Positions 1,971-56,682 of a stretch of DNA of 63,048 nucleotides are shown here, piece by piece. Both the position numbers and the translations under genes were made by a program. How positions within the stretch are numbered: the first letter of the stretch is position 1; every line of letters starts with the position of its first letter. The stretch lies in IMG/VR virus record IMGVR_UViG_3300049328_000002, positions 1 through 63,048 of that record; one strand, written 5' to 3'. This DNA is from a virus (lineage: Duplodnaviria > Caudoviricetes). A model generated the notes under the pieces. That model ran no database searches. It had not been told where the DNA came from and saw only the letters and a program-made list of their open reading frames with translations.

Positions 1971-2273
1971 CTACAGCTCGTCGTCATCGTCGGGTGGCAT
2001 CGCCAGCAGATCATCGTCATCGTCCTCGCCGTCATCCGGCAGATCGAGGAAGTCGTCATCGTCGTCGAGCTTCGCCTGGTACGGTCGCCAGGCTTGCAGC
2101 GGACAGATCGTGCTCGAGCACTCGCGGATGTCCCGGCGGTTGTAGCCGGTACAGTGAAGACACATTGCTTTGATGGCGTTCGCACGACCTCCGACGCGAT
2201 CGTAGGCTTTCGTGACGATATTGACGGCACTACTCGGTACGACGGCCATGTGAGCGGTTTGGCGTTCGTTCAT
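1971..2273 (-). CDS. Hypothetical Cys-rich protein with acidic DDDDEL tail
   Basis: AGGAG RBS before ATG 2273; CxxC...CxxxxC. Confidence 0.7.
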   Translation of the reverse strand: MNERQTAHMAVVPSSAVNIVTKAYDRVGGRANAIKAMCLHCTGYNRRDIRECSSTICPLQAWRPYQAKLDDDDDFLDLPDDGEDDDDDLLAMPPDDDDEL

Positions 2274-2460
2274 TTCGACACTCCTGGGTGGGTGATATGG
2301 ATGTTCGGCGACCCCCGTTTTCCATATATGTTTCAGATCGAGATGACGCGAACGCACATAGGGTAGTACGTAGGTAGCGGGTACGGCAAGAAAACGATTT
2401 AAGAAACATTCGCTGCACGGTTGTATCAGCCAGGGTGTCGGCGGCTGTTGAAATGTTGCC

Positions 2461-2766
2461 GCGAAGTGGCACTGGACTGGATGTACCGGAAAAACGGCAC
2501 TTTCGGGTTAGCTGGAATTTTGGCGATAATTTTTTATTTTCCATTACGCGGAGTCAGAACTAGGGTTTATCCAGTCCATCCAGTCCAGTTTGGATAAAAA
2601 ATAACCAATTTCAGCACATTTGATACAGCTAAGCGGCACACTCATGGCCAGAATCAATCGACAAAGTGGCTGATGCCATTTAGCGGCATGCCACTTTGCA
2701 GATAAGCCATTTAGCGACTCAGTAAATCATCCCATTTAGTGGCGCATCGATCCTTTGCCACTTTGC
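2461..2766. repeat. Iteron-like GCCAYTTWGC array plus AT-rich tract; candidate replication origin
   Basis: Forward copies at 2675, 2690, 2706, 2731, 2757; inverted copies at 2461, 2628, 2661; AT-rich about 2515-2620; next to the primase-helicase gene. Confidence 0.55.
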
Positions 2767-2784
2767 GACGAGAAACTTAGCGGC

Positions 2785-2810
2785 AAAAAGAAGGGCCGCA
2801 TCGCGGCCCT
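2785..2810 (-). terminator. Rho-independent terminator after primase-helicase
   Basis: Minus strand AGGGCCGC-GAT-GCGGCCCT-TCTTTTT. Confidence 0.85.
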
Positions 2811-2814
2811 GTCG

Positions 2815-5325: not shown

Positions 5326-5327
5326 GG

Positions 5328-5600: not shown

Positions 5601-5668
5601 TCCATAGGCCCTCGGCTCGGTGGGGTGAAGAAAAGTTGCAATTAACATAAATTTTCTGTTGACAGAAA

Positions 5669-5683
5669 TCAACCAAATGTTGA
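5669..5683. promoter_or_regulatory. TCAAC-N5-GTTGA box in the divergent promoter region
   Basis: TCAACCAAATGTTGA, preceded by TTGACA at 5659. Confidence 0.7.
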
Positions 5684-5725
5684 ATCTTATGTCCGCCCGC
5701 TCAATCTGACCTGGAGCCCACCAGC

Positions 5726-6214: not shown

Positions 6215-6232
6215 AAAAATTTGCCCACAGAG

Positions 6233-6247: not shown

Positions 6248-6304
6248 TTACGGCCAGATCAGCAGGCGTCAACCGTATCGGCCAACCTCATGAGGAAAAC
6301 GAAA

Positions 6305-6661
6305 ATGTCCATTGAAACTCTGCTGCAAGACCTGACCGCTGCAGTCCAAGCCAACACCGCGGCCCTGCAAGGCAAGGCCCACGCAACCGCCGGCAAGGCC
6401 GAGACCAAAGCCACCACGGGCAAGACCGACAAGGCCGCATCCGCGAACAAGTCGAAGATCAGCAAGGCGGAAATGCAGGCTGCTCTGAACAAGGTCAAAG
6501 AGGAAAAAGGCACCGCAGCCGCGAAGAAACTGATCGCCAATGCAGGCTTCGACAAACTGGCCGAAGTCAGCGAGGACAAGTACCAGGAACTGTACGACGC
6601 GGCCAAAGCCGAACTCGGTGAAGGCGGCGACGACGACACCGGCAGCGACGACGGTCTGTAA
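6305..6661 (+). CDS. Conserved replication-module protein (Ala/Lys-rich linker, helical C-terminal domain)
   Basis: GAGG RBS; usual first gene of the DUF2800-DUF2815-polymerase module. Confidence 0.75.
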   Translation: MSIETLLQDLTAAVQANTAALQGKAHATAGKAETKATTGKTDKAASANKSKISKAEMQAALNKVKEEKGTAAAKKLIANAGFDKLAEVSEDKYQELYDAAKAELGEGGDDDTGSDDGL

Positions 6662-6664
6662 TTT

Positions 6665-7978
6665 GTGACCGAGCACGGAATCAATCTCGCCGCGCTCGCG
6701 CAAGACCGAGGCTCGCACTCGGTCTTTGCGCCTTCCGCATCGCCGATGTGGATGGGTTGCAGCGGATCGCTGATTCCGAACCTGCTTGCGCCGGACACGG
6801 CCGGGCGGGACGCCGCGGAAGGCACGGTCGGCCATTACGTCGGCGAGACCTGGCTGAAGAGCGGCAAGCGACCAACCCACCTGATCGGCACCGTCGAATG
6901 GGTTGAAGAAGGCGATTGGGGATTCCTGATCGAGATCGACGAGGTGATGCTGGATTTCGTTCAGCAGTACGTCGATTGGTGCGAACTCCTGCCGGGCGAT
7001 CACTACGTCGAGCAGCGAGTCTATTTCTCGCAGATCACGCCGATTCCGAATCAGGGCGGGACTGCCGATCATGTCGTTTGCCGATTGCACGTCATGATCA
7101 TCACGGACCTGAAGTACGGCAAAGGCATTTGGGTCTTCGCCGAGAACAATTCGCAGTTATTGCTGTACGCGCTCGGGTTCTTCTACGAGTGGGACTGGCT
7201 CTACGATTTCCAGACGATCGTGATCCGCGTGGCGCAACCGCGGCTCAATAACTTCGACGAGTGGACGATCACTCGCGAAGAACTGCTCGCGTTCGCCGAG
7301 TACGCGCGCGAGCGGGCGCATGCCGCCTGGGTGATCGACGCGCCGCGCACGCCGAGCGAGAAAGCCTGCCAGTGGTGCAACGTCAAAGCGACGTGCACGG
7401 CGAACGCGAAGTTGCAGATCGACCTGATGGCCGCGGCGTTCGATGACCTCGGTGCGCCGGTCACGCACGAGCAGATGGAAGAGTTCGTCGACGACCTGGC
7501 GCTCACCGTCATTCCGCAGACGGTGCCGATCGTCACGCTTAGCACCGAAGACCTGGCCGTGCTGTATTCGTTTCGCAAGATGGCCGAGAGCTGGTGGAAG
7601 GCCGTTTCGCTCGAGCTGTTCCGCCGCGCTCAACTCGGCGAGCCGATCCCCGGTCAGAAGCTGGTGGAATCGCGGTCGCGCCGCGTCTTTCGCAATAGCG
7701 AAGCCGCGGCGAAAGAATTGAAACGCCTCGGCGTACCTGAGTCGCGCATTTGGGAGAAGAAAATTCTCTCGCCCGCGCAAGCCGAGATCGAACTTAAGAA
7801 AAAAGGGCATCGGACGAAAGACCTGCCCAACCTACTTTCCGACCTGGTGCACAAGCCAGTCGGCAAGGCAACGCTGGCGCCGATCTCAGATAAGCGAGTC
7901 GCGCTGGTGGACATCTCAGGTATCGCATTCGAAGACCTGAGCGAAACCCGTGAATCCGACGAAGACGAGGAATATTGA
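6665..7978 (+). CDS. Cas4-like / DUF2800 PD-(D/E)XK exonuclease
   Basis: HSVFAPS, GTAD, DLKYG, QLLLYALG, CQWC...C. Confidence 0.9.
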   Translation: MTEHGINLAALAQDRGSHSVFAPSASPMWMGCSGSLIPNLLAPDTAGRDAAEGTVGHYVGETWLKSGKRPTHLIGTVEWVEEGDWGFLIEIDEVMLDFVQQYVDWCELLPGDHYVEQRVYFSQITPIPNQGGTADHVVCRLHVMIITDLKYGKGIWVFAENNSQLLLYALGFFYEWDWLYDFQTIVIRVAQPRLNNFDEWTITREELLAFAEYARERAHAAWVIDAPRTPSEKACQWCNVKATCTANAKLQIDLMAAAFDDLGAPVTHEQMEEFVDDLALTVIPQTVPIVTLSTEDLAVLYSFRKMAESWWKAVSLELFRRAQLGEPIPGQKLVESRSRRVFRNSEAAAKELKRLGVPESRIWEKKILSPAQAEIELKKKGHRTKDLPNLLSDLVHKPVGKATLAPISDKRVALVDISGIAFEDLSETRESDEDEEY

Positions 7979-7979
7979 A

Positions 7980-8627
7980 ATGGCAGCTCTCGAAATCAAG
8001 AAAAAGGTAACAAACGCAGTTCTCTACACCAACGGTTGCATCCGAATCGACAACGTGCGCGTATCGTTCCCGCATCTCGATGTGCCTTACGCTGGCAAAA
8101 ACGGTGACGACACCGATGACAACGGCAAGAAGAAAACGCCGAAGTTTGGCATCGTCGGCATGTTGCCTAAATCGAGTCACGTTGCTGCGAAGGATCTGAT
8201 CAAGCAAGCGATGGACGAACTTCTCGCGGCGAACGACAACGCGAAAGTGGCTGCGGATAAGAAGTTCATCCGCAACGGTGACGACTCTGATCGCGAAGAG
8301 TACGCAGATCATTGGACGGTGTCAGCGCGCGAAGAACGCCAGCCGGCGATCCGAAATCAGCGCGGGGAATTGATCACCGATCCGAAAAAGATCGCCGATA
8401 TGATCTACGGCGGCTGCTATTGCAACATTCTGATCAGACCCTGGTATCAGGACGGCAAGAAGACAGGAGCCGGTTATGGTAAGCGTGTGAATGCCGGCCT
8501 GGTCGGCGTGCAGTTTGTCCGTGACGGCGATTCCTTCGGTGAAGGTCGTATCGACGACACCGACGCCTGGGACGACGTATCCAGCAGCAGCGGCGGTGAC
8601 GGCTTCGACGATGACGACGATCTGTAA
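7980..8627 (+). CDS. ssb: Single-stranded DNA-binding protein (DUF2815, gp2.5-like)
   Basis: NVRVSFPHL, IYGGCY, GVQFVRDGDSFG; acidic tail. Confidence 0.88.
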   Translation: MAALEIKKKVTNAVLYTNGCIRIDNVRVSFPHLDVPYAGKNGDDTDDNGKKKTPKFGIVGMLPKSSHVAAKDLIKQAMDELLAANDNAKVAADKKFIRNGDDSDREEYADHWTVSAREERQPAIRNQRGELITDPKKIADMIYGGCYCNILIRPWYQDGKKTGAGYGKRVNAGLVGVQFVRDGDSFGEGRIDDTDAWDDVSSSSGGDGFDDDDDL

Positions 8628-8681: not shown

Positions 8682-8696
8682 CATTGAGTCCTCGCT

Positions 8697-10739
8697 ATGG
8701 CCATTCGCAGATACACCGAACCGCGGCCGGAAGCCGTGTTCGACGTTGAGTGTTACATCGACTATTTCATGATCGGCTTCCGCGACATCGAGCGAGGTCG
8801 CACGAAGGCATTCGAATTTTACGACGGGTGCGGCCTCGATCGGCCTGGCATCGCGAAGCTACTCCGTCTTTGGCGCCTGTTCTCGTTCAACGGCAATCGT
8901 TACGACATGCTGATGTTGGCGGCAGCGATGAACGGCTGTGACAACGAGCAGCTTAAAGACATCAGTGATCGAATTATTATCGGCGGCTTGACCCCCTGGC
9001 AGTTTGAAGAGAAATACGGCTGGTCTCTGCCTGGTTTCATAGACCACGTCGACCTGATCGAAGTCGCGCCGGGCGTGGCGAGCCTGAAAATCTACGGCGG
9101 CCGGCTGCACTCGAAGCGCATGCAGGATCTGCCGATCGACCCTAGCGCGAACATCGCGCCACACCAGCGCCCGGTGATGGTCACGTACAACGGCAACGAC
9201 CTGGCCACGACCGCGGATCTGCGTCACGAGCTGCGAGAGCAGATCGCGCTGCGCGAGCGCATGAGCGACGAGTACGGCATCGATCTGCGCTCCAAATCCG
9301 ATGCGCAGGTGGCCGAGGCTGTCATCAAGAAGCAGATCGAACAGGAGCTCGGGCGCAAGGTCTACAGGCCCGACATCGAGCCGGGCTCGTCGTTCAAATA
9401 CCTGGCGCCGCGCTTCATCACCTTCCAGACGCCGCAGATGCGGGCGTTGCTTGATGATGTGAAGTCGGCGTTTTTCACGATCAACTACGACGGCACGGTG
9501 AAGATGCCGCAGATCCTCGAGTCCGCGAAGATCGCGATCGGCGATGGCGTCTACCGCATGGGTATCGGCGGTCTGCACAGCTCCGAGAAATCCGTCAGTC
9601 ACTATTCAGATGACGAGATCGGGATATACGACCGCGACGTGGCCAGTTACTACCCGATGCTGATCCTCGGTACGCAGCTCGCGCCGAAGCATCTCGGGCC
9701 GGCGTTCCTGAAGGTCTACAAGGGGCACGTCGATGCGCGCCTCGAGTGCAAAAAGCGCGGCGACAAGGCCGGCGCCAACAGCCGCAAGATCATGGTGAAC
9801 GGCACGTTCGGCAAACTCGGATCGCCGTATTCGATCTTCTACGCGCCGAACCTGATGATTCAGGTGACGATTACCGGGCAGCTCGCGCTGCTGATGCTGA
9901 TCGAATTGCTTGAGCTGGCTGGCTTCGAGGTGATATCGGCCAACACGGACGGCGTCGTAACGCGCGTCGAGCGCCATCGGAAAGACGACTTCGACGCGAT
10001 CCTTTTCGACTGGGAGCTCGCGACCGACTTCACCACGGAAGAAACGCAGTACCGCAGCCTGCATTCGCGCGACGTGAACAACTACATCGCGATTCCCGTC
10101 GAGGGCAAGCCGAAAACCAAGGGCGCGTACGCCCCATCCGGGCCGGGTCTGCCAGCCTCGAGCGGCCTGATGAAGAACCCCGCGAACGCTATCAGCGTGG
10201 ACGCCGCGGTCGAGTACCTGAAGGACGGCACGCCGCTATACGAGACGATCGAGTGGTGCGACGACATCCGCCGGTTCGTGAACGTGCGCCAGGTGAAGGG
10301 CGGCGCCGAGCGCGAAGGCGAATATCTCGGCAAAGCGATTCGCTGGTACTACGCGGAGGGCGTGCGCGGCGGTATCCATTACGTCACGAACGGCAATTCC
10401 GTGCCGAGATCCGAGGGGGCGATGCCGCTCATGGAGCTGCCCGATCGCCTACCCGACGATGTCGACTTCGACTGGTACGCGCGCGAGGCGGACGGGATCT
10501 TGCGCGACGTGGGCGTGAAGGCGCCGAAGCTGATCCAGCGCCGCATGGAGATGCGCGAGGGTTTCGCGCTCGCGCGCCTGCCCGACGCGAAGAACATCCA
10601 CACGGTCGACCTGTCGACGATGGTCGGCATCTGCGGCCAGGAGCTGAAGGGTCGACACGATAAATGGGTCGAGTACGACGAGAAACCGAGTGGGCATCGA
10701 GAGTGCCCAAAATGTGTTCGCGCGATGGGTGGCCTGTAG
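8697..10739 (+). CDS. DNA polymerase, family B, with 3'-5' exonuclease and C-terminal Zn-finger-like extension
   Basis: Exo motifs FDVE, FNGNRYD, YNGND; Pol motifs DVASYYP, KIMVNGTFGK, SANTDG. Confidence 0.9.
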   Translation: MAIRRYTEPRPEAVFDVECYIDYFMIGFRDIERGRTKAFEFYDGCGLDRPGIAKLLRLWRLFSFNGNRYDMLMLAAAMNGCDNEQLKDISDRIIIGGLTPWQFEEKYGWSLPGFIDHVDLIEVAPGVASLKIYGGRLHSKRMQDLPIDPSANIAPHQRPVMVTYNGNDLATTADLRHELREQIALRERMSDEYGIDLRSKSDAQVAEAVIKKQIEQELGRKVYRPDIEPGSSFKYLAPRFITFQTPQMRALLDDVKSAFFTINYDGTVKMPQILESAKIAIGDGVYRMGIGGLHSSEKSVSHYSDDEIGIYDRDVASYYPMLILGTQLAPKHLGPAFLKVYKGHVDARLECKKRGDKAGANSRKIMVNGTFGKLGSPYSIFYAPNLMIQVTITGQLALLMLIELLELAGFEVISANTDGVVTRVERHRKDDFDAILFDWELATDFTTEETQYRSLHSRDVNNYIAIPVEGKPKTKGAYAPSGPGLPASSGLMKNPANAISVDAAVEYLKDGTPLYETIEWCDDIRRFVNVRQVKGGAEREGEYLGKAIRWYYAEGVRGGIHYVTNGNSVPRSEGAMPLMELPDRLPDDVDFDWYAREADGILRDVGVKAPKLIQRRMEMREGFALARLPDAKNIHTVDLSTMVGICGQELKGRHDKWVEYDEKPSGHRECPKCVRAMGGL

Positions 10740-12662: not shown

Positions 12663-13352
12663 ATGGGTTCAACAGCGGAATTTAGAAGACTGTTCGTTCA
12701 GCGGCTCAACCAGGCGTGCGACCTTTCGAAGCTGGTTCCGGAGCCACACCACGGGCGGCAAACGTACATTGCCGATAAGCTCGATGTGACGAAGGAGTCG
12801 GTCAGCAAATGGTTCAAGGGGGTGTCGGTCCCGAAACACGGGCTGATGTCAAAACTTGCTGACCTTCTCGAATGCGATCAGACATGGTTGGCGTTTGGCA
12901 TACAGGCAGAAATTTCTCGCTCCGAGCGCAGGATTCATGCGAACCGAGCCGATGGTGCTGTTCAATTGGTTTGGGGTTTGATAACCCTGGAAGGTGGCCA
13001 CTGCGGAGCGCCTTCAAAGAATGACTCCCGCAGGGAATACGTCGATTTTTATTGCACTTTGCGAGGTGCGATTTATCCTATTTATGTATCTCTCGCTCGT
13101 GAAGTTTCCAAACACCGCTACGAAGCGATCCTGCCAAAAGAATACGAAGAGGTGCGGACCATCGCCGTCGTCCCTGCCGGCGTAGGTAGATACCACTTCC
13201 TTGACATGCAGCTCTCGAAGATCCAAGAGCACAAAGCCCGCAAGGGTGGATCTGTCGTCGTGGGCTTCAATCGCGCGGAAAGTGAGAAATATACAACAGG
13301 TAGCGACACCTGGCCGCGGATTCGATCTTTCATTGATTTGACCTGGCAATAG
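12663..13352 (+). CDS. XRE-family HTH regulator (repressor-like)
   Basis: QTYIADKLDVTKESVSKWFKG...LADLLECDQTWLAFG. Confidence 0.85.
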   Translation: MGSTAEFRRLFVQRLNQACDLSKLVPEPHHGRQTYIADKLDVTKESVSKWFKGVSVPKHGLMSKLADLLECDQTWLAFGIQAEISRSERRIHANRADGAVQLVWGLITLEGGHCGAPSKNDSRREYVDFYCTLRGAIYPIYVSLAREVSKHRYEAILPKEYEEVRTIAVVPAGVGRYHFLDMQLSKIQEHKARKGGSVVVGFNRAESEKYTTGSDTWPRIRSFIDLTWQ

Positions 13353-13545: not shown

Positions 13546-13788
13546 ATGGCGATTAAGACGAAGAACAAGGTGCTGATCGACTTCGAGTCCCGCGTGGATC
13601 TCGGGCCGACGTACGCCGCGAGACTGATCGGCATCGCCTATCCCACCTATGCGGCCTATCGCTCCGGCAGCCGCGAACTCCCTGACTATCATCGCAATCA
13701 CGTTCAAGCGCTGCTGCTGCTCGCGCCGGAAGTGTTGAGCGATCTCAAAGAGGAACATGCCTATGGCAGCGCGCTCAGACAGTCTTGA
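13546..13788 (+). CDS. Small HTH DNA-binding protein
   Basis: PTYAARLIGIAYPTYAAYRSGSR. Confidence 0.75.
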   Translation: MAIKTKNKVLIDFESRVDLGPTYAARLIGIAYPTYAAYRSGSRELPDYHRNHVQALLLLAPEVLSDLKEEHAYGSALRQS

Positions 13789-14314
13789 CCAGGAAAGCCG
13801 CGCGATGATCTTCGAAGGTTGCAACCTGTCGGAGTTGGGTCGCATCTTCCATATGGATCACCGCGTTCTCGTAGAAAAACTGCACGGCGTATCGCCGTCA
13901 GGAAAGCGCGGCAAAGGTGAAACCTATTTAATTCACGAGGTCGCTCCCTACCTTGTGAAGCCGATTCAGGACATCGAGACGTACATCAAGCGGATGAATC
14001 ACGCTGATCTGCCGAAGATGCTCACGAAGGAATTTTGGGCAGGTCAGCGGTCGAAGCAGGAATATCTGCTGAAGGCCGGCGACCTGTGGCCCACCTCCGA
14101 GGTTGTAAAGAATGTCGGCGAGCTGATGAAGCTCGTGGCAATGAGCGCGAAGTTGACGCGAGACACCGTTGAGCGCCAGGTCGAGCTGACCGATCGCCAG
14201 CGGGCAATCATCACTACGCAGATGGATGGAATGTTGCGCGACCTGCGCGCACAGGTCATCAAAACTTTCGGACAAGATCTGACGGTTGCTGAAGTTGAAG
14301 ACGACGAGTTATAG
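13757..14314 (+). CDS. terS: Terminase small subunit (DUF1441-like)
   Basis: N-terminal winged HTH and coiled coil; immediately before the large subunit. Confidence 0.85.
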   Translation: MPMAARSDSLDQESRAMIFEGCNLSELGRIFHMDHRVLVEKLHGVSPSGKRGKGETYLIHEVAPYLVKPIQDIETYIKRMNHADLPKMLTKEFWAGQRSKQEYLLKAGDLWPTSEVVKNVGELMKLVAMSAKLTRDTVERQVELTDRQRAIITTQMDGMLRDLRAQVIKTFGQDLTVAEVEDDEL

Positions 14315-16364
14315 AACGGTCGGCGATATTATCGTCGCCCTGGCGGATCTTATCGAACCGCCAGAACGCATCTCGGTTTCCCAGGCCGCGGAAAAATATC
14401 GCTATGTGAATCAGCCGGGCGCCTACGTCGGCCCCTGGTTGAACGACACGGTGTCGTACATGGTCGAGCCGATGGACACGTTCGCGTCCCCGGAATTCAC
14501 CGGGCTGATATTCGTGGGGCCTGCGCAGAGTGGCAAGACCGACAGCTTGATCATTAACGCTGTCGTCTACGCTGTAAAGGTCGACCCGCTCGACATGATG
14601 ATCGTGTCGCCGTCGATGAGCGAGTCGCGCGACTTCTCAATGCGGCGTATCGATCGCCTAAACCGGCACAGCGAAGAGGTCGGTGTGATGTTGGTGCCTG
14701 GCGCCGACCACGACAACACGTTCGACAAAACCTACGTCAACGGCATGCTGCTCTCGCTAACATGGCCGACGCCGAGCACGCTTGCCGGCAAACCGATTGC
14801 GCGCGTGGTTATCACCGACCGCGACCGCATGGACGACGATATTGGTGGCGACGGGGAAGTGTTCGACCTTGCCTCGAAGCGGAACACCACGTTCGGCTCT
14901 TATGCGATGACCGTGGCCGAGTCCTCGCCGAGCCGCGGCGTTGAAAACTTAAAGTGGATTCCGCAGACGCTGCACGAGGCACCACCGGCAGGGGGCATCC
15001 TGTCCCTGTATAACAGGGGTGATCGTCGTCGATGGTACTGGGCGTGTCCGATCTGCCAGCTGTACTTCGAAGGTCGGTTCGAAATGCTGACCTATGACGA
15101 CTGGCATGGTGCGACGAACCTCGATCGCGCTGACACGGTTCGCATGGTGTGCCCGCACTGCGCGCACAAGATCCATCCAGACGATCGCGAGGAAATGCAG
15201 CGTTGGGGTATATGGGTCCGCGACGGCCAGGCTGTCGACAAACATGGTCGACTATTCGGCCCGAAGCCGCGGACGCTGATCGCTTCGTTCTGGTTGCGCG
15301 GTGTCGCTGCTGCATTCACGAATTGGAAGAAGCTGGTTGCCCTGTATCTCGACGCGATGGATGCGTATAGCCGCAATGGTTCAGAAGAAGCGCTGAAGAA
15401 ATTCTACAACAACGATCTCGGCGAGCCGTACTATCCGAAAGCTCTGCAAGAAATGCGTCTCCCTGAAACGCTGAAGGCTCGCGCTGAGAAGTTGGAAGAG
15501 CGAAAGGTTCCGGCAGACGTGCGTTTCCTCGTTGCCACGGTCGATGTGCAAAACAACTGGTTCGTGGTGCAGGTGTTCGGCATCCTGCCTGGCCAGCCGT
15601 TCGACACGGTCGTCATCGACCGCTACGAGGTCCGTAACTCTAAGCGCACCGATGATGATGACAATGCGCTGTGGGTGAAGCCCGCCACCTATCTCGAGGA
15701 CTGGGACGAACTGGTCGAGCATGTCATCGAGAAGGAATATCCGCTCGATGACGATTCGGGCCGCGTGATGCAGATCAAGATGGTGGGCTGTGACTCCGGC
15801 GGTAAGAAGGGTGCGACCACGATGGCGTACAACTTCTATCGCAAACTGCGCGAGAGCAACAAGCATCGCAGGTTTATCTTGCTGAAGGGCGACCACGTAC
15901 CGAACCAGCCGCGCACGCGCATCAGCTACCCGGACAGCAGCCGGAAGGATTCGAAGGCCGGCGCTCGAGGCGACATCCCGCTGCTTCTCCTGAACTCCAA
16001 CATGCTGAAAGACGACCTCAACGGCCGCTTGGACTGCATCGAGCCGGCGAAGGGGATGTACCGGACGCCGGACTGGTTGTCCGACTCGTTCTACGGCGAG
16101 CTGTGCAGCGAGGTGCGTACGCCGAAGGGTTGGGAGCACACCAGCAGCGCCCGAAACGAAGCCTGGGATTTGAGCTATTACTGCATCGGGCTATGCGTTT
16201 CTGAGCTGATTCGTATCGAGCATATCGACTGGTTGAACCCGCCCCGGTGGGCAGCGCCGTGGGATCAGAACGACCTGGTCCGCACCCCCGAAGAGGGGCG
16301 CAGGTTTACAGGCACTGCCGAAGGGAACTATGATTTCGCAAAATTCGGGAAAGCCTTAGCCTAA
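14286..16364 (+). CDS. terL: Terminase large subunit (lambda GpA family)
   Basis: GPAQSGKT, SSPS, GDRRRWYWACPIC, TVDVQ, DSGG, RNEAWDL. Confidence 0.95.
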   Translation: MLKLKTTSYRTVGDIIVALADLIEPPERISVSQAAEKYRYVNQPGAYVGPWLNDTVSYMVEPMDTFASPEFTGLIFVGPAQSGKTDSLIINAVVYAVKVDPLDMMIVSPSMSESRDFSMRRIDRLNRHSEEVGVMLVPGADHDNTFDKTYVNGMLLSLTWPTPSTLAGKPIARVVITDRDRMDDDIGGDGEVFDLASKRNTTFGSYAMTVAESSPSRGVENLKWIPQTLHEAPPAGGILSLYNRGDRRRWYWACPICQLYFEGRFEMLTYDDWHGATNLDRADTVRMVCPHCAHKIHPDDREEMQRWGIWVRDGQAVDKHGRLFGPKPRTLIASFWLRGVAAAFTNWKKLVALYLDAMDAYSRNGSEEALKKFYNNDLGEPYYPKALQEMRLPETLKARAEKLEERKVPADVRFLVATVDVQNNWFVVQVFGILPGQPFDTVVIDRYEVRNSKRTDDDDNALWVKPATYLEDWDELVEHVIEKEYPLDDDSGRVMQIKMVGCDSGGKKGATTMAYNFYRKLRESNKHRRFILLKGDHVPNQPRTRISYPDSSRKDSKAGARGDIPLLLLNSNMLKDDLNGRLDCIEPAKGMYRTPDWLSDSFYGELCSEVRTPKGWEHTSSARNEAWDLSYYCIGLCVSELIRIEHIDWLNPPRWAAPWDQNDLVRTPEEGRRFTGTAEGNYDFAKFGKALA

Positions 16365-21450: not shown

Positions 21451-21738
21451 ATGCCGAAGCGCATTCCCGTTCAAAGCATCGTCCTGCACCGCGAAGGCAA
21501 GCAGGTCATCCCGAAGGTCGGTGAACCCTTCATGTTCACGGAAGACGAACTGGCCGACATCAAGCAGGCCAATCCGAAGGCGATTCGCCACGTCGTCAAC
21601 GAAGACGCCATGCCGGTCGACGGCGATGTGCCGATCGACATGGTCGACGACGAGCCTGTGAAGGGCGATCCCACAGACAAAAAGACCGGCGGCAAAGGCG
21701 GCAAAGCTGGCAAATCCGAGAAATCGGACGAGCTGTAA
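21451..21738 (+). CDS. Head-associated protein (gpFI position)
   Basis: AGGAG RBS; synteny; ends KSDEL. Confidence 0.7.
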   Translation: MPKRIPVQSIVLHREGKQVIPKVGEPFMFTEDELADIKQANPKAIRHVVNEDAMPVDGDVPIDMVDDEPVKGDPTDKKTGGKGGKAGKSEKSDEL

Positions 21739-50214: not shown

Positions 50215-50786
50215 GGTTGCACCGCCCGCCGGGAGAAGGTTGTTCGCGCTCTTCGAAATATCCCCAGCGTTAATTTACTGAAGTCATAATCAAGCGATGC
50301 GATTCGACGCTCGTCTGCCCATATTGGATGAGTGTCTTCGATAAACTGCGCGAACGGTTCCAGCGCTTTTTCCAACTCGACGATGCGCGCTTTCAGTTTG
50401 CCGATCTCCGACACACGATCGCGCCAACCGGGAATAAAATGATCGAGTTCTTCTGTTGCGAACCCACCGCGGCAGTTACAACCTTCGAGATCGACGAGTG
50501 CCTTCTGTTCGCCGTATTGTTTGCAGTAGGAGTCGTACGCTTCAAGGTGCATTGACCACGGGATACCTGGCGCATACCCCTGCACAGGCGCGATCTTTTC
50601 GACCGGCAACTTAGCGATGCGATCGAGGTCGGCGTACATATCACGCATCGCCTTCAGCTCGTGCTCGTGGTGCAAGCGATCGTCGGCGTCGGCTTCCAAC
50701 TCGATAAGACGTTGAAGCGCGCTCTGCCATGCGTCGCGATGTGACTCAAGGTTGTCGGGTTGAATTTTCATCACGTCAGTCCTCAC
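50211..50786 (-). CDS. Hypothetical protein
   Basis: Coupled ORF, 191 aa. Confidence 0.7.
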   Translation of the reverse strand: MRTDVMKIQPDNLESHRDAWQSALQRLIELEADADDRLHHEHELKAMRDMYADLDRIAKLPVEKIAPVQGYAPGIPWSMHLEAYDSYCKQYGEQKALVDLEGCNCRGGFATEELDHFIPGWRDRVSEIGKLKARIVELEKALEPFAQFIEDTHPIWADERRIASLDYDFSKLTLGIFRRARTTFSRRAVQP

Positions 50787-51406
50787 AGTTCGTCGTCATC
50801 GTCGACAGTGACAGGCTCGTCCTTCGGCACGTTGAACTTCGCGACGAAGTCCTTGCCGCGAAACCCCTTCATCGCAGCGGCGATCTTCTGCATGCCGTAG
50901 CTGACGATCAGCGCCTGGAATTTCGCATCGTCGAGCGCGTTGTGGGCCGTGCCGACATCCTTCACCTCGCGGCCGGTCATCTCAGCCAATTCGATGAGCG
51001 TGCGTACGTCGCGCGTCTTCGTGAAATGCCAAGGCTCGGCCAGGCCGACAGACCGATAGGCTGACTTGAGCCAGGCGCCGTCTTCGCACGGACCCTTGAA
51101 CCAGACTGTCGGCACGTCGGCGCTGCGGATGGTGGTGCCGATCACGTCGAGCGCTTCGCGCAGCTTGACCTTGCTCGGCTTATCGCTGAACACGTCACGC
51201 GCGACCGGCGATTGCGTCACCCACCAGCGCAGCGTACTGCCGTCGATATGCCCGTGCCTGATCGTGTCGTCGATGTCGATCTCGAAGTATTGCTGGCCAC
51301 CGAGCTTGCCGGTCTCGGGATCGAAGCGGACGACGCCGATCGACAGGATGGCCGGGTTGTTGGTCGAGACGCCCAGGGTCTCGCAGTCAATGCTGAAGTG
51401 GTTCAC
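50783..51406 (-). CDS. DEDDh 3'-5' exonuclease (Rv2179c / ExoVIII-like)
   Basis: IDCETLG, ILSIG, TLRWW, RDVRT, HNALDDA. Confidence 0.88.
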   Translation of the reverse strand: MNHFSIDCETLGVSTNNPAILSIGVVRFDPETGKLGGQQYFEIDIDDTIRHGHIDGSTLRWWVTQSPVARDVFSDKPSKVKLREALDVIGTTIRSADVPTVWFKGPCEDGAWLKSAYRSVGLAEPWHFTKTRDVRTLIELAEMTGREVKDVGTAHNALDDAKFQALIVSYGMQKIAAAMKGFRGKDFVAKFNVPKDEPVTVDDDDEL

Positions 51407-51909
51407 GAGTGTTGGTCCTCAGTGGGTTTGAATACGATGCAACTACCCTTCGGCCATGGGGGCTCGAATCCCGGCTGCACGCTGAAAGGTTCGGGTGCCT
51501 TGTATGCGAAATCGCCGGGGTAGCGCGGATCGCGCTCTGCGTTAATCGGTCCAATCTGCAAACCGCGATTTTTCAGCGCTGCGATGAACCGCTGATTCCA
51601 CTTCTCGTCAGAGTGGCCTGCAACTCGCAGTGCCTCGCTGAGCAGTTCCCTGTATGTATCTGCCGGGATGTCTTTCAGGTCGCCGTACGGCACGTTGTTG
51701 CATCGGGCTTTGACCCCGCAATGCGAACAGGCATCGAAAGTCACGTAGACGGTCCCCGCGCTCTTGCCGGTACAGTGAACCAACCCCGTCGCGCCGGCAG
51801 GGATCACAGTGCCGCCCGTTGTAATCTCGCGCAGCAGTTCGACGCGCACGCCGACCCAGTCGCGCGCGAATTTTTTACCGCCGTATTTGCCTTTCGCAGT
51901 TGTGCTCAT
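51403..51909 (-). CDS. Hypothetical two-domain protein
   Basis: SH3-like/CxxC N-terminus; C-terminus paralogous to 48356-48625. Confidence 0.7.
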   Translation of the reverse strand: MSTTAKGKYGGKKFARDWVGVRVELLREITTGGTVIPAGATGLVHCTGKSAGTVYVTFDACSHCGVKARCNNVPYGDLKDIPADTYRELLSEALRVAGHSDEKWNQRFIAALKNRGLQIGPINAERDPRYPGDFAYKAPEPFSVQPGFEPPWPKGSCIVFKPTEDQHS

Positions 51910-52205
51910 AGCTCATCGAACTCTCCGTGAAGGCGCCAGAACCGCACGCCGGGTTGCTGGTAGATCTCGTCGCACTCGACTTCCCGCATCGTGTGCGCGA
52001 GCCCTTCGTTGTTCAGCGGCTTGCGAATGAAGTCCATGTCAGGCTTCTTCACCCCCTGGACGAAGAACGACTGGCCGGGCCGCATAGCGGCGACTCGGTC
52101 GACGAGCTTCACCAGGGCCGGGTTGCGCAACTTGGTCTTCAGCTTCCGGGTGGCACGCCGAATGGGCACGCCGTCTTCAACGACGATTTCGCCTAGATCT
52201 CGCAC
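51906..52205 (-). CDS. Small basic putative DNA-binding protein
   Basis: GGAGAGGA RBS; MRPGQSFFV...GVRFWR. Confidence 0.65.
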   Translation of the reverse strand: MRDLGEIVVEDGVPIRRATRKLKTKLRNPALVKLVDRVAAMRPGQSFFVQGVKKPDMDFIRKPLNNEGLAHTMREVECDEIYQQPGVRFWRLHGEFDEL

Positions 52206-52272: not shown

Positions 52273-53814
52273 CTAGGTGGCCGGTCGGTTTGAAGTTTTT
52301 CGCGGGCGCGACCGCCCGTCGTTCAGGTTCCGGGGTATATGCCGACGTAGCACGCCCCCGCTACCATCGTGTATACCCCTGCCGCCGCCAACGGCGAGCA
52401 GGAGGTTGTACCAGTGGACCTCGGCCCACATGCCCCTTTCATCGGGCGTGCAGCGGATCTTCCCCACCAGTCGTTTCAACACGTCGCGCGCAGCCTGGAT
52501 GTCATCGCTGTTCAGGATCTCGCGCATGCTGCTCACGGCCGCGCGCCAGGCGCTCTCGGTCGGCCACGGCAGATCCACGGTTGGCGGCGGCGCCGTTCGC
52601 GCGGCGAGAGCTCGTCGCTTCGCTTCAGCAATGGCCGGCGCCATGATATCGGCCGACACCGTGCCAGCCCGCACCATCGCTTCCAGGGCGGCGACTTCGC
52701 GGTCAGCCGCGGTCTCAGGGTGGGCCAGCTCGCGTTCGGCCTTTGCGCGCTCAATCCGCAGCATTTTCACCCCCTCGTTGATCGCCTCCGGTGACAGCAT
52801 CTCGGCGATCAGCGGCTCGAGGACAGCCGCCTCGATCACCTTGCGCGGGATCGACGCTGAGTTCGTGCAGGCGTACTCGCCGCCGGCCTTGAAGGCGCTG
52901 CATCCATACCGGCGGTTCTTCCCGCCGAACACGACCATCTTCTTCTCGCAGATCCCGCACTCGAGCAGGCCCGACAGCGGATACGTCGCCGTGCGGTCGA
53001 ACTTCGTCCGGCCCACAAAGCGGCGTTGAACACGCGACCAGGTGATCTCGTCGACCCAGGCTTCGCCCGGCTGCACGATCCATTGCTCGCGCGGCCGTTC
53101 GCGGCGTACGCGCTTGCCGCTGTCCGGGTCTTTGAACCACTGGCTCTTGTTCCAGACCACGCGGCCGATGTACTTCTCGTTCTTCAGGATCGCGTGCAGC
53201 GCCGACACGAGCCACTTGCCGCGCACCCCGCACCGCGGTTTCCAGTTCGCGCCAGGTGACGGGATCTCACGGCGGTTGAGGTCGTGCACGATCGCCTTCA
53301 GCGTCTCGCCGTCCGCGTAACGCCGGAACACCTCTTCGACGATCTCGCGGTTGTCGTATGCCTTGCCTCCGGTCGGCCGGCCGGCGAGCGCCCGCATCTC
53401 AAGCGCGGATCGCGTGCGGTCGGCGACGGTGGTGCGGAACTCTTCGGACATGATGCCGCTCATGCCGGCCTGCATGCGGGCCGTACGGGAGTCGCTGTCG
53501 AAGCCGTCCTGCACGGCGAACACGCGCACGCCGCGGAACTTCAACCTGGACAGCATCGGCGCGAGATCCTGCGATCGGCAGAGCCGGGTGAGGTCCATGA
53601 CGACCAGTACATCGCCGGTCGACAGCGCGGCCAGGGCTGCTTGCACACCAGGCCGGTTGCCTGTCGCCGCGCCGCTGATCCCTTCGTCGCTGAACTCGCC
53701 GCCGATCGACAATGAGCGTTGGGCGGCGAACGCGCGGCACACGCGCACCTGGTCGAAGATCGATTGCTCGTCTTGCATGTCGGTGCTGAAGCGGGCGTAG
53801 ATGATGGCTTTCAT
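52273..53814 (-). CDS. int: Large serine recombinase (integrase)
   Basis: YARFS catalytic Ser, DEGISG, RPG, DLTRL.R; recombinase domain; Zn ribbon LSGLLECGIC...YGC; coiled coil. Confidence 0.95.
   Translation of the reverse strand: MKAIIYARFSTDMQDEQSIFDQVRVCRAFAAQRSLSIGGEFSDEGISGAATGNRPGVQAALAALSTGDVLVVMDLTRLCRSQDLAPMLSRLKFRGVRVFAVQDGFDSDSRTARMQAGMSGIMSEEFRTTVADRTRSALEMRALAGRPTGGKAYDNREIVEEVFRRYADGETLKAIVHDLNRREIPSPGANWKPRCGVRGKWLVSALHAILKNEKYIGRVVWNKSQWFKDPDSGKRVRRERPREQWIVQPGEAWVDEITWSRVQRRFVGRTKFDRTATYPLSGLLECGICEKKMVVFGGKNRRYGCSAFKAGGEYACTNSASIPRKVIEAAVLEPLIAEMLSPEAINEGVKMLRIERAKAERELAHPETAADREVAALEAMVRAGTVSADIMAPAIAEAKRRALAARTAPPPTVDLPWPTESAWRAAVSSMREILNSDDIQAARDVLKRLVGKIRCTPDERGMWAEVHWYNLLLAVGGGRGIHDGSGGVLRRHIPRNLNDGRSRPRKTSNRPAT
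52332..52379. other. attP: Putative attP inside the integrase 3' end; contains the tRNA-like 3' end GCCCCCGCTACCA
   Basis: 48-bp dyad: GGGGTATA/TATACCCC and GTAGC/GCTAC share one centre (CC at 52355-52356). Confidence 0.75.
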
Positions 53815-54119
53815 GGGGCGACCGCGTACGAGGTGAATTGATTTTCTTCGTGGCCTTTGATCAACAGTTGCACACGGTCAGGATCTTCCCAGTCCATACT
53901 GCGAACCGCTTCGATTAACCAGTCGCGATCGAGATAATTGAACGCGCCCGCGTAAACATCGCTTTCCATCACCTTGTCGCCACCGGCGTGATGATCGATT
54001 CTAACCAATGGGCGATCATGCTTCACCGTGATCTTTTTGTTCAATAGGTCGACGGTAGGCGTGGTATCGCAGCGGTCGAAAATTCCCGTGATCAGAATGA
54101 CATCGGTCACGACGGACAT
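53811..54119 (-). CDS. Hypothetical protein
   Basis: GGAG RBS; ATGA coupling to int. Confidence 0.75.
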   Translation of the reverse strand: MSVVTDVILITGIFDRCDTTPTVDLLNKKITVKHDRPLVRIDHHAGGDKVMESDVYAGAFNYLDRDWLIEAVRSMDWEDPDRVQLLIKGHEENQFTSYAVAP

Positions 54120-54195
54120 TTCAAAGACTCCGGCAAGGGCTTGGGACGCATGGCGGCTCGGGCGATGATGCGCATTAACTCTAACAACTCAGGGC

Positions 54196-54447
54196 TCATA
54201 ACTCATCCTCGGCCATCAGCTCGTCAATGAAACGGTTGCGCCGCACCTGGTGCTGTCGCTGCTCATACTGCTCACGGCAACGGCGGCACAGCTCGTCACC
54301 TAATGGCGCGCAGGCACCGCACTGGCATTTCGGCTGATCGTGACTTGCGTCGCTACGCTTTTTGTATTCAGCGTAATGCTCGACACAGCGATCTTTCTTG
54401 AACACGGGCTCGCTACAGCAGTCACGCCGACAGAATTTTCGAGCCAT
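54196..54447 (-). CDS. Small Cys-rich protein ending EDEL
   Basis: Multiple Cys/His; TAATG coupling. Confidence 0.7.
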   Translation of the reverse strand: MARKFCRRDCCSEPVFKKDRCVEHYAEYKKRSDASHDQPKCQCGACAPLGDELCRRCREQYEQRQHQVRRNRFIDELMAEDEL

Positions 54448-54872
54448 TATAATTTCACCTCGGGCGGCAGTGGATTCTCAGCGCGGTACTGCGCGACGGT
54501 CTTGCCGAAGTGCTGCTCGGCGCAGGGCTTGCAGTACCACTCGCTGCAATACAGGCACTGGTACATGAAGAGGACTGCACGAGTAGCGCCGCATCGGCAG
54601 GGCATCGTTCCGAGGCGGATGTTCACGCCGGCCGCAGCCTGGCGAACTGTTTCGCGCTTCTGCTCGGCGATGAACGAGAACTTTTCGATCCACTGCGCTT
54701 CGTCGAATTCGGGTTTGGTCTGCTCGCGGAGTCTTGCCGCGACAGCATTTACGCCCTCAACAATTGCCGACACAATCGCCATGTCGGCGCCGTATTGACG
54801 TGCCGCGCCAAGGGCAACGTTGTGGAAACAATCCAGCGCTTCGGCTAATTTCCCTTGGTCAATCTGACCCAT
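54447..54872 (-). CDS. Hypothetical protein with C-terminal Zn finger
   Basis: CRCG...CLYC...CKPCAEQHF. Confidence 0.7.
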   Translation of the reverse strand: MGQIDQGKLAEALDCFHNVALGAARQYGADMAIVSAIVEGVNAVAARLREQTKPEFDEAQWIEKFSFIAEQKRETVRQAAAGVNIRLGTMPCRCGATRAVLFMYQCLYCSEWYCKPCAEQHFGKTVAQYRAENPLPPEVKL

Positions 54873-55111
54873 CACTTCGATCCTCGATAAATCATGTAGA
54901 CAGCTTGAGCCGCACACTCCCACGCACGTTTGCTCTGCTCGTCCATGTGCGACCAGCGCAGGTGCGGCCCGTTCTTCTCGACGCCGCGGACATGCGGGAA
55001 GCGCGACTCGTAGAACGCTTCCATCGCAACCTGGCCGAGCGGCTTTGCGCCGGCATCGCCATGTGACTGAACGGGCTGCTGCGGACGGCCGAGGTTTTCG
55101 AAGTTGTTCAT
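54872..55111 (-). CDS. Hypothetical protein
   Basis: LGQVA.EAF...W......WE..A motif; coupled. Confidence 0.65.
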   Translation of the reverse strand: MNNFENLGRPQQPVQSHGDAGAKPLGQVAMEAFYESRFPHVRGVEKNGPHLRWSHMDEQSKRAWECAAQAVYMIYRGSK

Positions 55112-55112
55112 G

Positions 55113-55373
55113 TCATCGCGCCTTGAAGACTTCGAACTTCATGTGCTCGGCACCGCCAGTATCGACGAGCAGTTCGTTGATCGTTGTTTGGATCAGCGGC
55201 AGCAGGTCGCGATACAGGCACGGTTGCTTCGGCCGGAGCTGATGTTTCGCTTCGCCGGTTGGCCCCTTGGCCCACACGTTGATTAGCCAGCGGTGTGCGC
55301 CAGGCGGCTTAGGGCGATGCCACCGCGGCGAGTCGACCTGGACCTTGCTGTCGAACGTGGCGATCAGGATCAT
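55113..55373 (-). CDS. Hypothetical protein
   Basis: ATGA coupling with the upstream ORF. Confidence 0.6.
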   Translation of the reverse strand: MILIATFDSKVQVDSPRWHRPKPPGAHRWLINVWAKGPTGEAKHQLRPKQPCLYRDLLPLIQTTINELLVDTGGAEHMKFEVFKAR

Positions 55374-55654
55374 TTCGGTGTGCCTTGAAAATTGGCTTGG
55401 TTGCCGAGCGTGCGACAACTCTCGAACGTTTTATCGCACGACAGCTGCCCGCCGTTGTAACGACACACAGCATCTCGGAAGACGCATACGCAGAGGTTTT
55501 CGATCTTCGGTTTCGCCTGCGCTTTATGCCATTCGAGCTTGGCCGTGGCGAGCACCTGACCTTTCGACCAGGTGGGGTGACGGTCACGCAGCGCGACGCA
55601 GATTGCGAGCAAGTCGGTGCGACGAACTACTGAGAATTCGCCTCGCGCGCTCAT
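55370..55654 (-). CDS. Hypothetical protein
   Basis: ATGA coupling with rdgC; Cys-rich C-terminus. Confidence 0.55.
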   Translation of the reverse strand: MSARGEFSVVRRTDLLAICVALRDRHPTWSKGQVLATAKLEWHKAQAKPKIENLCVCVFRDAVCRYNGGQLSCDKTFESCRTLGNQANFQGTPK

Positions 55655-56682
55655 AGCTCGTCATCCTCTTCGTCGACCAGCGCTTCTTCGAGTTTCGCCG
55701 GCTTAGGCACATGCAGACCGCCGAGCTGTTCGATCACGTCGTTCACCAGTGCGGAGTAGCGATTGGCAACGAGCATCGAGAATGAACAGAAGGCATAACG
55801 CTCGTCTCCATCATCCTGCGCGTCGTTGTGCGACTCCATGGTGAAGTCGGTGAACTGCACGCGCTTGAATACGAGCTTGGTGTTGAGCGTGAACACGAGC
55901 ACCCGATCTTCTTCGTCGTCCGGTGCTTCCTCGCCGTACGTCATGCGGAGCTCACTCGGCTCGTAGCCACTCTTGATCAGCTTTTGCACCTCGTCACCGT
56001 AGATGTCACGATCCTTGATGCGGATCGTGCGCTTCTCGGTTCCGTGCAGCACCGCCGCGTCATCAGCTTCGAATACAATGCTGTCGTCGAGGTCACGCAG
56101 ACGAGCGGCGATGGCGACCGTGCGCAGCAGCGACGCCGGGTCATCTTCAGTATCGATCAGGCGGCACTTCGCCATGTCCCACGGCAGCACATGACTCAGC
56201 AGCGAGATCACCTCGTCGGCACGCTTCGCGCTGCTCGTGAACACGAACAGTTTGTTCTTGCCGGTGAACATCACGTACACGATGCTACGGCGGATGAACG
56301 CTTTGGGCAGCAGCTCGTGCTCAACGTCGTCGCGCAGCTGCGCGTACTCTTTGCGTGAGAGTTTCCGATCCTCACGTTCCTCGATCGAAGCGATGCGCTT
56401 CAGCAGATGTTCGTCGCGGACCTTGCCCGGCAGGATGCGTTCGTTGAACTGCACGGCCAGGAGGAAGGTGCCAGGCACGACGGTGTGGAAGAAGACACCT
56501 TCGTCGACCGGGCACACCAGGCCGATGCTGCGCCAGGCTTGCGGGCTTGGATCGAGCGAGACGTGTTTCAGCAGTTCTTCCTCGAACTCTTCGCCGCGGT
56601 TCCGCGACACGTTGCCCAGGTCGATGATGAAGCCGGGTGTCACGGTGTACGCGACGAAGTTCTTGTACGGATGATTCTTCAT
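55651..56682 (-). CDS. rdgC: Recombination-associated protein RdgC
   Basis: SIG.V.P, ERILPG.V, ELLPKAF, SSAKRA. Confidence 0.85.
   Translation of the reverse strand: MKNHPYKNFVAYTVTPGFIIDLGNVSRNRGEEFEEELLKHVSLDPSPQAWRSIGLVCPVDEGVFFHTVVPGTFLLAVQFNERILPGKVRDEHLLKRIASIEEREDRKLSRKEYAQLRDDVEHELLPKAFIRRSIVYVMFTGKNKLFVFTSSAKRADEVISLLSHVLPWDMAKCRLIDTEDDPASLLRTVAIAARLRDLDDSIVFEADDAAVLHGTEKRTIRIKDRDIYGDEVQKLIKSGYEPSELRMTYGEEAPDDEEDRVLVFTLNTKLVFKRVQFTDFTMESHNDAQDDGDERYAFCSFSMLVANRYSALVNDVIEQLGGLHVPKPAKLEEALVDEEDDEL

Follow-up and report, generated by a model that had tools for sequence, protein, structure and literature searches.

The virus record IMGVR_UViG_3300049328_000002 is a single stretch of 63,048 bases, which we analysed in full and call the window; it is a complete genome of a Chi/Nazgul-like (Casjensviridae-type) phage. 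Eight of its proteins, of unrelated families, end in the same short motif, [DN]EL (Table 1): a Cys-rich protein of 100 amino acids (aa), the primase-helicase, TerS, a DUF7443 protein of the head region, an Rv2179c-like exonuclease, a 99-aa protein, a 69-aa orphan open reading frame (ORF) and RdgC. An initial annotation, made from the sequence alone, had pointed to these endings and to three near matches, on SSB (which binds single-stranded DNA), a 123-aa helical protein and a Cas4-like nuclease. An independent gene call recovered all of them, with the families confirmed by Pfam and PHROGs and with the gene ending in SDDGL starting at 6290 instead of 6305. The window DNA polymerase shares 53% identity with its counterpart in Burkholderia phage AH2, and TerL about 60% with TerL of Chi-like phages (Pectobacterium, Proteus, Salmonella), which makes this phage a distant member of the Casjensviridae-type ("Chi-like"/"Nazgul-like") siphophages. 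Genes were called with a home-made caller using self-trained codon log-odds, which gave 83 genes covering 91% of the window. The C termini depend on which stop-defined ORFs count as genes, and the choice of start is irrelevant to them. Three of the ORFs (343, 100 and 69 aa) are also separately called proteins of the same contig in the protein collection that we searched.

Table 1. Tailed proteins of the window and other features mentioned in the text, in order of position.
Feature	Position	Strand	C-terminal end	Tail codons	Remarks
100-aa Cys-rich protein	1971-2273	-	DDDDEL	1974-1991	No coupled downstream gene
Primase-helicase, 836 aa	2815-5325	-	EDNEL	2818-2835	Prim-Pol, PriCT_2, DUF5906
123-aa helical protein ("125-aa protein" family)	6290-6661	+	SDDGL (near match)		phrog_7721; basic disordered linker
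Cas4-like nuclease	6665-7978	+	EDEEY (near match)		DUF2800 / PD-(D/E)XK; aromatic last residue
SSB, T7 gp2.5-like / Enc34-type	7950-8627	+	DDDDDL (near match)	8607-8624	phrog_112 (Gp2.5-like), PF10991
Internal AWDD motif of SSB	near 8570-8585	+			Just upstream of the tail
DNA polymerase slot	8697-10739	+			Same slot: L096:10721-12718; MA11 14079-16163
Repressor-like regulator	12786-13352	+			phrog_2967
TerS	13763-14314 (start 13763 or 13805)	+	EDDEL	14294-14311	DUF1441, phrog_141
TerL	14286-16364	+	FGKALA
Structural block, 30 genes	14286-46571	+
DUF7443 protein	21451-21738	+	KSDEL		Directly 3' of major capsid gene; Lys/Gly-rich linker; TAATG overlap with next gene
Rv2179c-like DEDD 3'-5' exonuclease	50783-51406	-	DDDDEL		GTGA overlap with next ORF
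99-aa protein	51906-52205	-	EFDEL		phrog_7200; ATGA overlap with next gene; adjoins rdgC in relatives
Large serine recombinase	52273-53814	-			Resolvase + Recombinase + Zn_ribbon_recom
69-aa orphan ORF	54196-54405	-	AEDEL		Internal IDEL six residues upstream; weak coding score (7-8)
RdgC	55651-56682	-	EDDEL		PF04381; 21-residue C-terminal extension; ATGA overlap with next gene

The number of these endings is far above expectation. The motif [DN]EL closes 8 of the 83 window proteins, where amino acid composition predicts 0.044 and the internal rate (26 in 18,749 positions) predicts 0.115 (binomial P = 4.9e-13). When 83 internal tripeptides were drawn 5,000 times, the commonest identical tripeptide never exceeded four copies; DEL was observed seven times. 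The acidic character extends further upstream, with 3 to 6 Asp or Glu among the last 10 residues of the tails. The looser ending [DE][DE]L, expected 0.12 to 0.19 times per genome, closes 8/83 proteins in the window, 12/85 in genome G001, 8/81 in G002, 4/74 in AH2, 9/79 in AXY1, 7/84 in phiAxp-2, 9/66 in MA11 and 3/67 in SD-11_S17. Four comparison phages have hardly any (AchV4 0/78, JG054 1/72, CAjan 0/86, ACF1 0/86), and two of them are no true negatives: three ACF1 proteins (Cas4-like nuclease, SSB and polymerase) share the ending DLF, and AchV4 has acidic tails ending in LF, LL, LA or GL. Some 8 to 9 different proteins carry such a tail in this genome and up to 12 to 13 in relatives. The motif "(D/N)EL" of the initial annotation is enriched here, but the real unit is wider, an acidic run followed by one terminal aliphatic or aromatic residue, of which [DN]EL is the version of this genome.

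The tails could reflect constraints on the DNA instead of the peptide, and the initial annotation had cautioned that translational coupling to the next gene might account for some of them. In the window, the tailed genes for the DUF7443 protein, the exonuclease, the 99-aa protein and RdgC are coupled, which is half of the eight [DN]EL genes. Those for the 100-aa protein, the primase-helicase, SSB, TerS and the 69-aa ORF are uncoupled, so the first three lie out of reach of coupling, as had been proposed. The stop of the primase-helicase gene falls within ...CTATGA with no downstream ORF starting there, and the 3' end of the TerS gene overlaps the TerL start by 29 nucleotides, which is not an ATGA-type coupling. 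Counting as coupled any gene that overlaps a downstream start, among 619 called genes of eight related genomes, we found 23 coupled and 39 uncoupled tagged genes against 237 and 320 untagged ones (Fisher p = 0.50). The caveat is thus settled against coupling, and the enrichment persists when genes with overlapping starts are set aside, with the tag on 39 of 359 uncoupled genes. The variation of Leu, Glu and stop codons noted earlier is real and extends to Asp: window tails use CTG, CTA and TTA for Leu, GAG and GAA for Glu, GAC and GAT for Asp, and all three stops. In uncoupled genes, the terminal Leu is spelled CTG 16, CTC 9, TTG 5, CTT 4, TTA 3 and CTA 2 times, close to genome-wide usage. In coupled genes, the rare CTA makes up 8 of 23, against 5% genome-wide, which is the expected pattern since an ATGA overlap forces an A at the third position while Leu has to stay. 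Finally, the motif closes 62 of the 619 called genes but only 2 of 4,516 uncalled ORFs with a length of 30 aa or more, and one of these two is the annotated TerS of MA11, which the home-made caller had missed. These comparisons support selection on the peptide and not on the DNA.

Homologues keep the tail while their bodies diverge. Nothing in the phage collection matched when 9.8 kb of the window were searched by megablast, so that it contains no near-identical phage; relatives were found through protein searches instead. Our sample consists of 80 IMG/VR loci around the SSB gene and twelve genomes, which yielded 74 distinct SSB-bearing modules (handles with L denote loci, those with G genomes). 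Many of the IMG/VR loci are partial, the metagenomic ones have no host assignment and relatedness is only partly controlled. Two complete IMG/VR relatives, whose primases are 58 to 59% identical to that of the window, keep an acidic-Leu/Ile end on seven families (primase-helicase, 125-aa protein, SSB, TerS, DUF7443, the family of the 99-aa protein and RdgC), and the bodies of the tail-keeping orthologues are only 34 to 59% identical. The SNF2 helicases of these two relatives end in DDDEL and EDDEL, an ending that the window helicase does not have, and their polymerases, though acidic at the end, have no hydrophobic cap. The endings vary within the type: orthologues of the primase-helicase end in DDDDEL (twice), DDDDQL, EKDEL or VDDDL, those of the DUF7443 protein in AADDL, GDDEI, KNDDL, KEEEL or ADDDL, and those of the 99-aa protein in AYDDL, SFDEL, EDDEL (twice) or KDEEL, with a tail in 6 of the 7 genomes having this gene. 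Retention by homologues, which the initial annotation had made a test of its proposal, is borne out, also for RdgC. The 120 best RdgC homologues have 35 to 100% identity and come mostly from metagenomic contigs of phage size; every one of them closes with an acidic run and then L (112), I (6) or F (2). A search for related loci based on RdgC gave no locus, and its orthologues were reached through the genome search and the protein collection.

The tail is an acid-rich add-on beyond the folded domain. In the tagged window proteins, Pfam domains stop 18 to 37 residues short of the C terminus; the domain of the Rv2179c-like exonuclease, for instance, stops near residue 175 of 207. Bacterial RdgC chains of known structure (2OWY, 306 aa; 2OWL, 303 aa) end 2 to 4 residues past the last aligned motif, and the phage protein runs 21 residues further, an extension that these chains do not have. 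In the AlphaFold2 model of the window SSB, the core is confidently folded (predicted local distance difference test, pLDDT, above 90) and the last 15 residues reach about 53, which supports a flexible appendage. This SSB is likely the archetype of the tag.

Some of the small proteins elaborate on the theme. The 100-aa protein is well supported, with four homologues at 56 to 79% identity and a DDDEL end in all five sequences, the query included. This family starts with a conserved Cys-rich (CxxC...C...C) N-terminal domain, continues with one to three internal acidic-LL/FL repeats, which in the window protein stand in tandem, and closes with DDDEL, as if it were a multivalent form of the tag. 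The 123-aa protein was modelled by AlphaFold2 as helical (pLDDT 73), and a Foldseek search of the model against the PDB gave no match at E <= 0.001. In both this protein and the DUF7443 protein, the acidic tail comes together with a basic linker that is rich in Lys and of low complexity, so each molecule could bind tails and also offer one. The 69-aa ORF has no homologue in a collection of 5.8 billion proteins, in whose own gene call the same 69-aa product appears.

Who carries the tag in this lineage? Among the loci having the gene, the tail is present in 71/74 for SSB, 53/53 for the 125-aa protein, 46/50 for TerS, 43/61 for the primase-helicase, 41/71 for the Cas4-like nuclease (there with an L, V, F or I end), 20/70 for the SNF2 helicase, 16/36 for the B-type DNA polymerase, 3/64 for VRR-NUC and 0/54 for TerL. 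Other clients occur in single lineages: a C5 DNA methyltransferase in MA11, a Dam methyltransferase in SD-11_S17, a DUF4031 protein in G001 and, in AXY1, a second, independent Rv2179c-like exonuclease that is likewise tagged, ending in EDDEEL. In AH2, a RusA-like resolvase and a ParB-like protein, so named by annotation, are tagged. In the structural block of the window, 1 of 30 genes has the tag, that of the DUF7443 protein. The earlier statement that the tag is absent from capsid, tail and lysis proteins therefore stands for the 29 other genes but not for this one, which the initial annotation had itself listed. The range of clients and the near absence from the structural block make the tag a property of DNA-acting proteins of many unrelated folds, and support its almost exclusive use on proteins of DNA replication, recombination, modification and packaging.

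The last residue of the tails follows what we call dialects, since L, I, V, M or F tends to be shared across the different proteins of one genome. A 14-member Enc34-like clade uses V on the primase-helicase, 125-aa protein, Cas4-like nuclease, SSB and TerS, with few exceptions: an I end on the 125-aa proteins of L105 and L106 and, in L105, a primase lacking such a tail. The SSB of Enc34 itself (Enterobacter host) ends in ...DEV by our own reading of a primer printed in PMC5686142, and the SSB of L088 has an identical end. Locus L068 has acidic tails with a final I on the 125-aa protein, Cas4-like nuclease, SSB and TerS, and a primase with the I but no acidic run; the nearest relative of L068, L064, uses L. 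The residue I is also used by L086, L103 and L109, F by L116 (on three proteins) and L121-L125, LF by three ACF1 proteins and M by three phiAxp-2 proteins. The last residue of TerS follows the dialect of its genome. We shuffled last residues within each family among 19 genomes, one representative per group below 50% identity in the Cas4 core, a design that does not remove relatedness. The last residue was the same in 75 of 108 within-genome pairs of tails. Shuffling gave 36.1 such pairs on average and 53 at most, and none of the 5,000 shuffles reached 75. The outcome was unchanged at cut-offs of 60, 70 and 90%. The shared residue is spelled by different codons (GTT, GTG and GTA for V; TTG, CTG, CTT and CTC for L; ATC, ATA and ATT for I), so gene conversion between tails does not explain it.

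Other C-terminal signatures were seen along the way. TerL ends in a conserved small non-polar motif (...ALA, ...LLA, ...MLA) in the 54 loci, which looks like a second C-terminal signature with a different partner. In the clades of the V and I dialects (loci L080-L109), the SNF2 helicase ends in a Trp-acidic motif (...VWDDEE, ...IWDD, ...VWE) instead of an acidic-aliphatic one; in the I clade, the Cas4-like nuclease and the primase also end in such a motif. The SSBs, that of the window included, have a similar internal ...AWDD... sequence just before the tail. The Trp-acidic motif may be a second docking element. Some distant relatives have ends like those of host SSBs (...DDDIPF, ...DCPF, ...DSPF) on the small protein, primase and SSB (a 124-aa protein of L061, and L121-L125), which hints that some lineages read or mimic the host system based on the C-terminal tip of SSB (SSB-Ct).

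Taken together, we propose that the tails are probably a selected short linear motif that serves as a common docking tag, akin to the tails of T7 gp2.5 and gp4 and generalised to a dozen clients. A flexible acidic run followed by one hydrophobic residue bearing the free carboxylate would be a docking element of the same kind as the tail of the phage's SSB, and the lineage would have appended this SSB-type tail to unrelated proteins of DNA transactions. The acidic run could provide long-range electrostatic attraction to a basic surface of a common reader, with the last side chain and its carboxylate fitting a pocket. Clients could thereby concentrate and exchange on replicating or recombining phage DNA, as the gp2.5 and gp4 tails act on T7 polymerase. 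Candidate readers are the DNA polymerase of either type, the groove of SSB for single-stranded DNA (ssDNA), the primase-helicase or a host factor. Regarding the polymerase, lineages of this family differ: between the genes for SSB and VRR-NUC, some have phrog_1252 (Pol II-like, family B) and others, in the same slot, phrog_17, an unrelated type that ends in ...FYRKD and is never tagged. Co-folding of the SSB core (residues 1-200) with the last 97 residues of the primase-helicase gave an interaction prediction score from aligned errors (ipSAE) of 0.00 in both runs, with the controls not folded, and counts neither way.

Several observations weigh against this docking proposal, or at least against its simplest form. 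The family-B polymerase was rejected as a universal reader, because MA11, SD-11_S17 and the V and I clades use the other polymerase and because 16 of 36 B-type polymerases are tagged themselves. TerS and the DUF7443 protein are clients outside the replisome, and in genome G000 the SNF2 helicase and the DNA polymerase have no tail though their orthologues do. The covariation behind the dialects was also tested with relatedness taken into account. With independent pairs, comparing the terminal residue of SSB with those of five other families for L, V and I, each pair offered only 1 to 6 contrasts (4 to 6 for L): the partner changed the same way in about 1 or 2, the opposite way in 0 or 1, and showed no difference in the rest. 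The p values were 0.5 to 1 among the comparisons listed, in an underpowered test, with 3 to 5 independent dialect switches in hand. In several cases, for example the SSBs of phiAxp-2, L110 and L087, a single protein has recently changed its last residue while the other tails kept theirs, which suggests that L, I, M and V may to some extent replace one another. In our view, the dialects are good evidence for a single shared, co-evolving reader, although not conclusive. The hub that the initial annotation had imagined keeps the support of a client list made almost only of DNA proteins and of a last residue shared per genome, which fits a single reader, but the test with independent pairs had too few contrasts for significance.

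How else could one ending come to sit on so many proteins? The tail might need no hub and work in cis as a DNA mimic, folding onto the basic DNA-binding surface of its own protein for auto-inhibition or for discrimination between ssDNA and double-stranded DNA (dsDNA), with the cap as a generic anchor. All annotated clients bind or act on DNA, and there are precedents in related proteins: PMC5686142 describes, for the Enc34 SSB, a crystal in which the acidic tail rests in the sheet with which its neighbour binds DNA, and a tail-less protein that binds dsDNA as well as ssDNA, and PMC10359462 has the T7 gp2.5 tail competing with ssDNA for the oligonucleotide/oligosaccharide-binding (OB) fold. The Enc34 crystal is a precedent for docking as well. 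The difficulty is that each of the unrelated folds would have to possess a pocket for one and the same residue, and that all of them would have to go over jointly from L to V, I or F within a lineage, which is hard to explain without a shared reader. We thus consider mimicry in cis unlikely as the explanation of the tag, although it may coexist with docking, by analogy with gp2.5, which does both.

A signal of proteostasis or termination read by the host, with the cap blocking recognition of a C-terminal degron or the tail acting as a timed degron, seems to us improbable. C-terminal residues do control bacterial proteolysis, and a host reader would also put one motif on many proteins. However, the tag is confined to DNA-handling proteins, being absent from 29/30 genes of the structural block and from TerL in 54/54 loci, and the dialects differ among phages of Enterobacterales (L in MA11 of Pectobacterium; I, M and L in SD-11_S17 of Salmonella; V in the SSB of Enc34). 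We also rejected an identity with ssrA-type degrons, in which the last three to five residues are non-polar (...LAA-like), whereas the last five residues of the tails are mostly Asp or Glu. The shielding from a protease that the initial annotation had suggested as its second option gains nothing from these data.

The tag could also target proteins to the capsid. They would enter proheads and leave with the injected DNA, and the DUF7443 protein would belong to the system. One tagged gene does lie in the head module, and the tagged DNA methyltransferases of MA11 and SD-11_S17 recall the anti-restriction proteins that other phages inject. Yet an 836-aa primase-helicase, SSB and TerS are not expected in virions and known capsid-targeting sequences are N-terminal, which leaves co-packaging very unlikely. 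As for a by-product of stop/start overlap (...CTATGA), a repeated DNA word, gene conversion between tails or plain chance, three GAGCTATGA copies on the minus strand and the downstream starts overlapped by 4 of 8 [DN]EL genes speak for it, and we give it next to no credence in view of the lack of association with coupling across 619 genes (39/359 uncoupled ones tagged), non-coding frames nearly free of the motif (2/4,516), synonymous codons that differ within and between genomes and a binomial P of 5e-13.

If the tails are docking tags, one short peptide is the organising element of most DNA metabolism across a large and widespread family (Chi-like, Enc34-like and Nazgul-like phages). A single peptide could then serve as bait to fish out the reader, any small protein bearing the tail would be predicted to act at phage DNA, and the L, V, I and F dialects would become a test case for the co-evolution of a short linear motif and its reader. 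It would extend the two-protein case of T7 to a code at the scale of the proteome, and would suggest that packaging, through TerS, is physically coupled to replication. The tails might be used as orthogonal recruitment tags. For annotation, the last residues of such proteins should not be trimmed or dismissed as low-complexity noise. More tentatively, and with real doubt on our side, the tail could be a virus-encoded address code of phages with the gp2.5-like SSB module (Casjensviridae and kin), in which one motif wires up to a dozen unrelated DNA proteins to a single co-evolving reader and the last residue is a lineage dialect by which the machineries of co-infecting relatives stay orthogonal. 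Such a code would mirror, in viral and inverted form, the hubs built on SSB-Ct or on a clamp, and would join replication, recombination, modification and packaging in one physical assembly.

A few features of the genome stand apart from the tag. The large serine recombinase and the repressor-like regulator suggest a temperate lifestyle. The recombinase block sits between rdgC and the gene of the 99-aa protein, and the corresponding genes are immediate neighbours in four relatives (G001, AXY1, MA11 and SD-11_S17), so the block may be an insertion into a conserved gene pair. ARAGORN found no tRNA in the window. Rfam at gathering thresholds gave no match in the whole window, including none to the DUF2815-associated RNA, a motif that the preprint 10.64898/2026.10.21.760695 places upstream of related SSB genes.

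How do these tails compare with known systems? A KDEL-type signal of retention in the endoplasmic reticulum (ER), which the KSDEL end of the DUF7443 protein could evoke, was rejected because bacteria have no ER-type compartment. Clamp-binding motifs, the PIP-box of PCNA and QL[SD]LF of the beta-clamp, are short, often C-terminal, and bring polymerases, nucleases, methyltransferases and helicases to replicating DNA. Judged against these consensus motifs, the tails have neither the Q nor the paired hydrophobic (Leu/Phe) positions, with a single hydrophobic residue after the acidic run, and this identity was rejected too. No clamp family was found among the 27 of 83 window proteins that were scanned (20 in Pfam, 19 in PHROGs). 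As a concept, a shared tag read by one hub has its nearest precedent in T4, where gp43, gp55 and gp33 have highly similar and interchangeable hydrophobic-acidic C-terminal epitopes, on flexible linkers, that bind the clamp gp45 (PMC2988020). The T4 epitope is mainly hydrophobic, whereas the tails described here are mainly acidic with a single hydrophobic cap.

The bacterial SSB-Ct, with its tip ...DDDIPF, shares with these tails the acidic run and the hydrophobic carboxy terminus. It is a protein-protein docking element in DNA metabolism (PMC7293020). There, one tagged protein meets many reader enzymes; here the arrangement is inverted, with many enzymes tagged. An identity with SSB-Ct was rejected: the window tails end in DEL, NEL or DDL, without an IPF tip, and are found on 8 to 9 proteins instead of SSB alone. 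PF endings are restricted to the distant loci L121-L125 and one protein of L061.

T7 offers the nearest likeness. Among the 23 class II proteins of T7 that we translated, two have an acidic ...DF end, gp2.5 and gp4. The terminal Phe of gp2.5 is reportedly essential, with suppressors said, in study titles, to map to the polymerase gene (gene 5). Of the two tails, that of gp4 binds two basic patches of the polymerase gp5 and keeps the polymerase tethered (PMC12593628), and that of gp2.5 interacts with polymerase and helicase (PMC10359462). As in T7, an unstructured acidic tail with a hydrophobic cap is found on the gp2.5-family SSB and the primase-helicase of one genome, the same ending stands on non-homologous proteins and the hydrophobic C-terminal residue is conserved. 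At the level of sequence, the tails thus have the features of the gp2.5/gp4 class. Unlike T7, with its 2 of 23 proteins, there are 8 to 9 clients here and up to 12 to 13 in relatives, and nucleases, RdgC, the SNF2 helicase, methyltransferases, TerS and a protein of the head region are among them. In most lineages an aliphatic residue (L, V, I or M) stands in place of Phe as the cap, and the polymerase is of a different family and has been swapped between lineages. In the literature we searched, no paper reported that proteins of Casjensviridae, Chi-like or Nazgul-like phages have a C-terminal tag in common. The principle is known from two T7 proteins, and what appears to be new is the scale, with 8 to 13 clients per genome, the breadth of the clients and dialects that run genome-wide.

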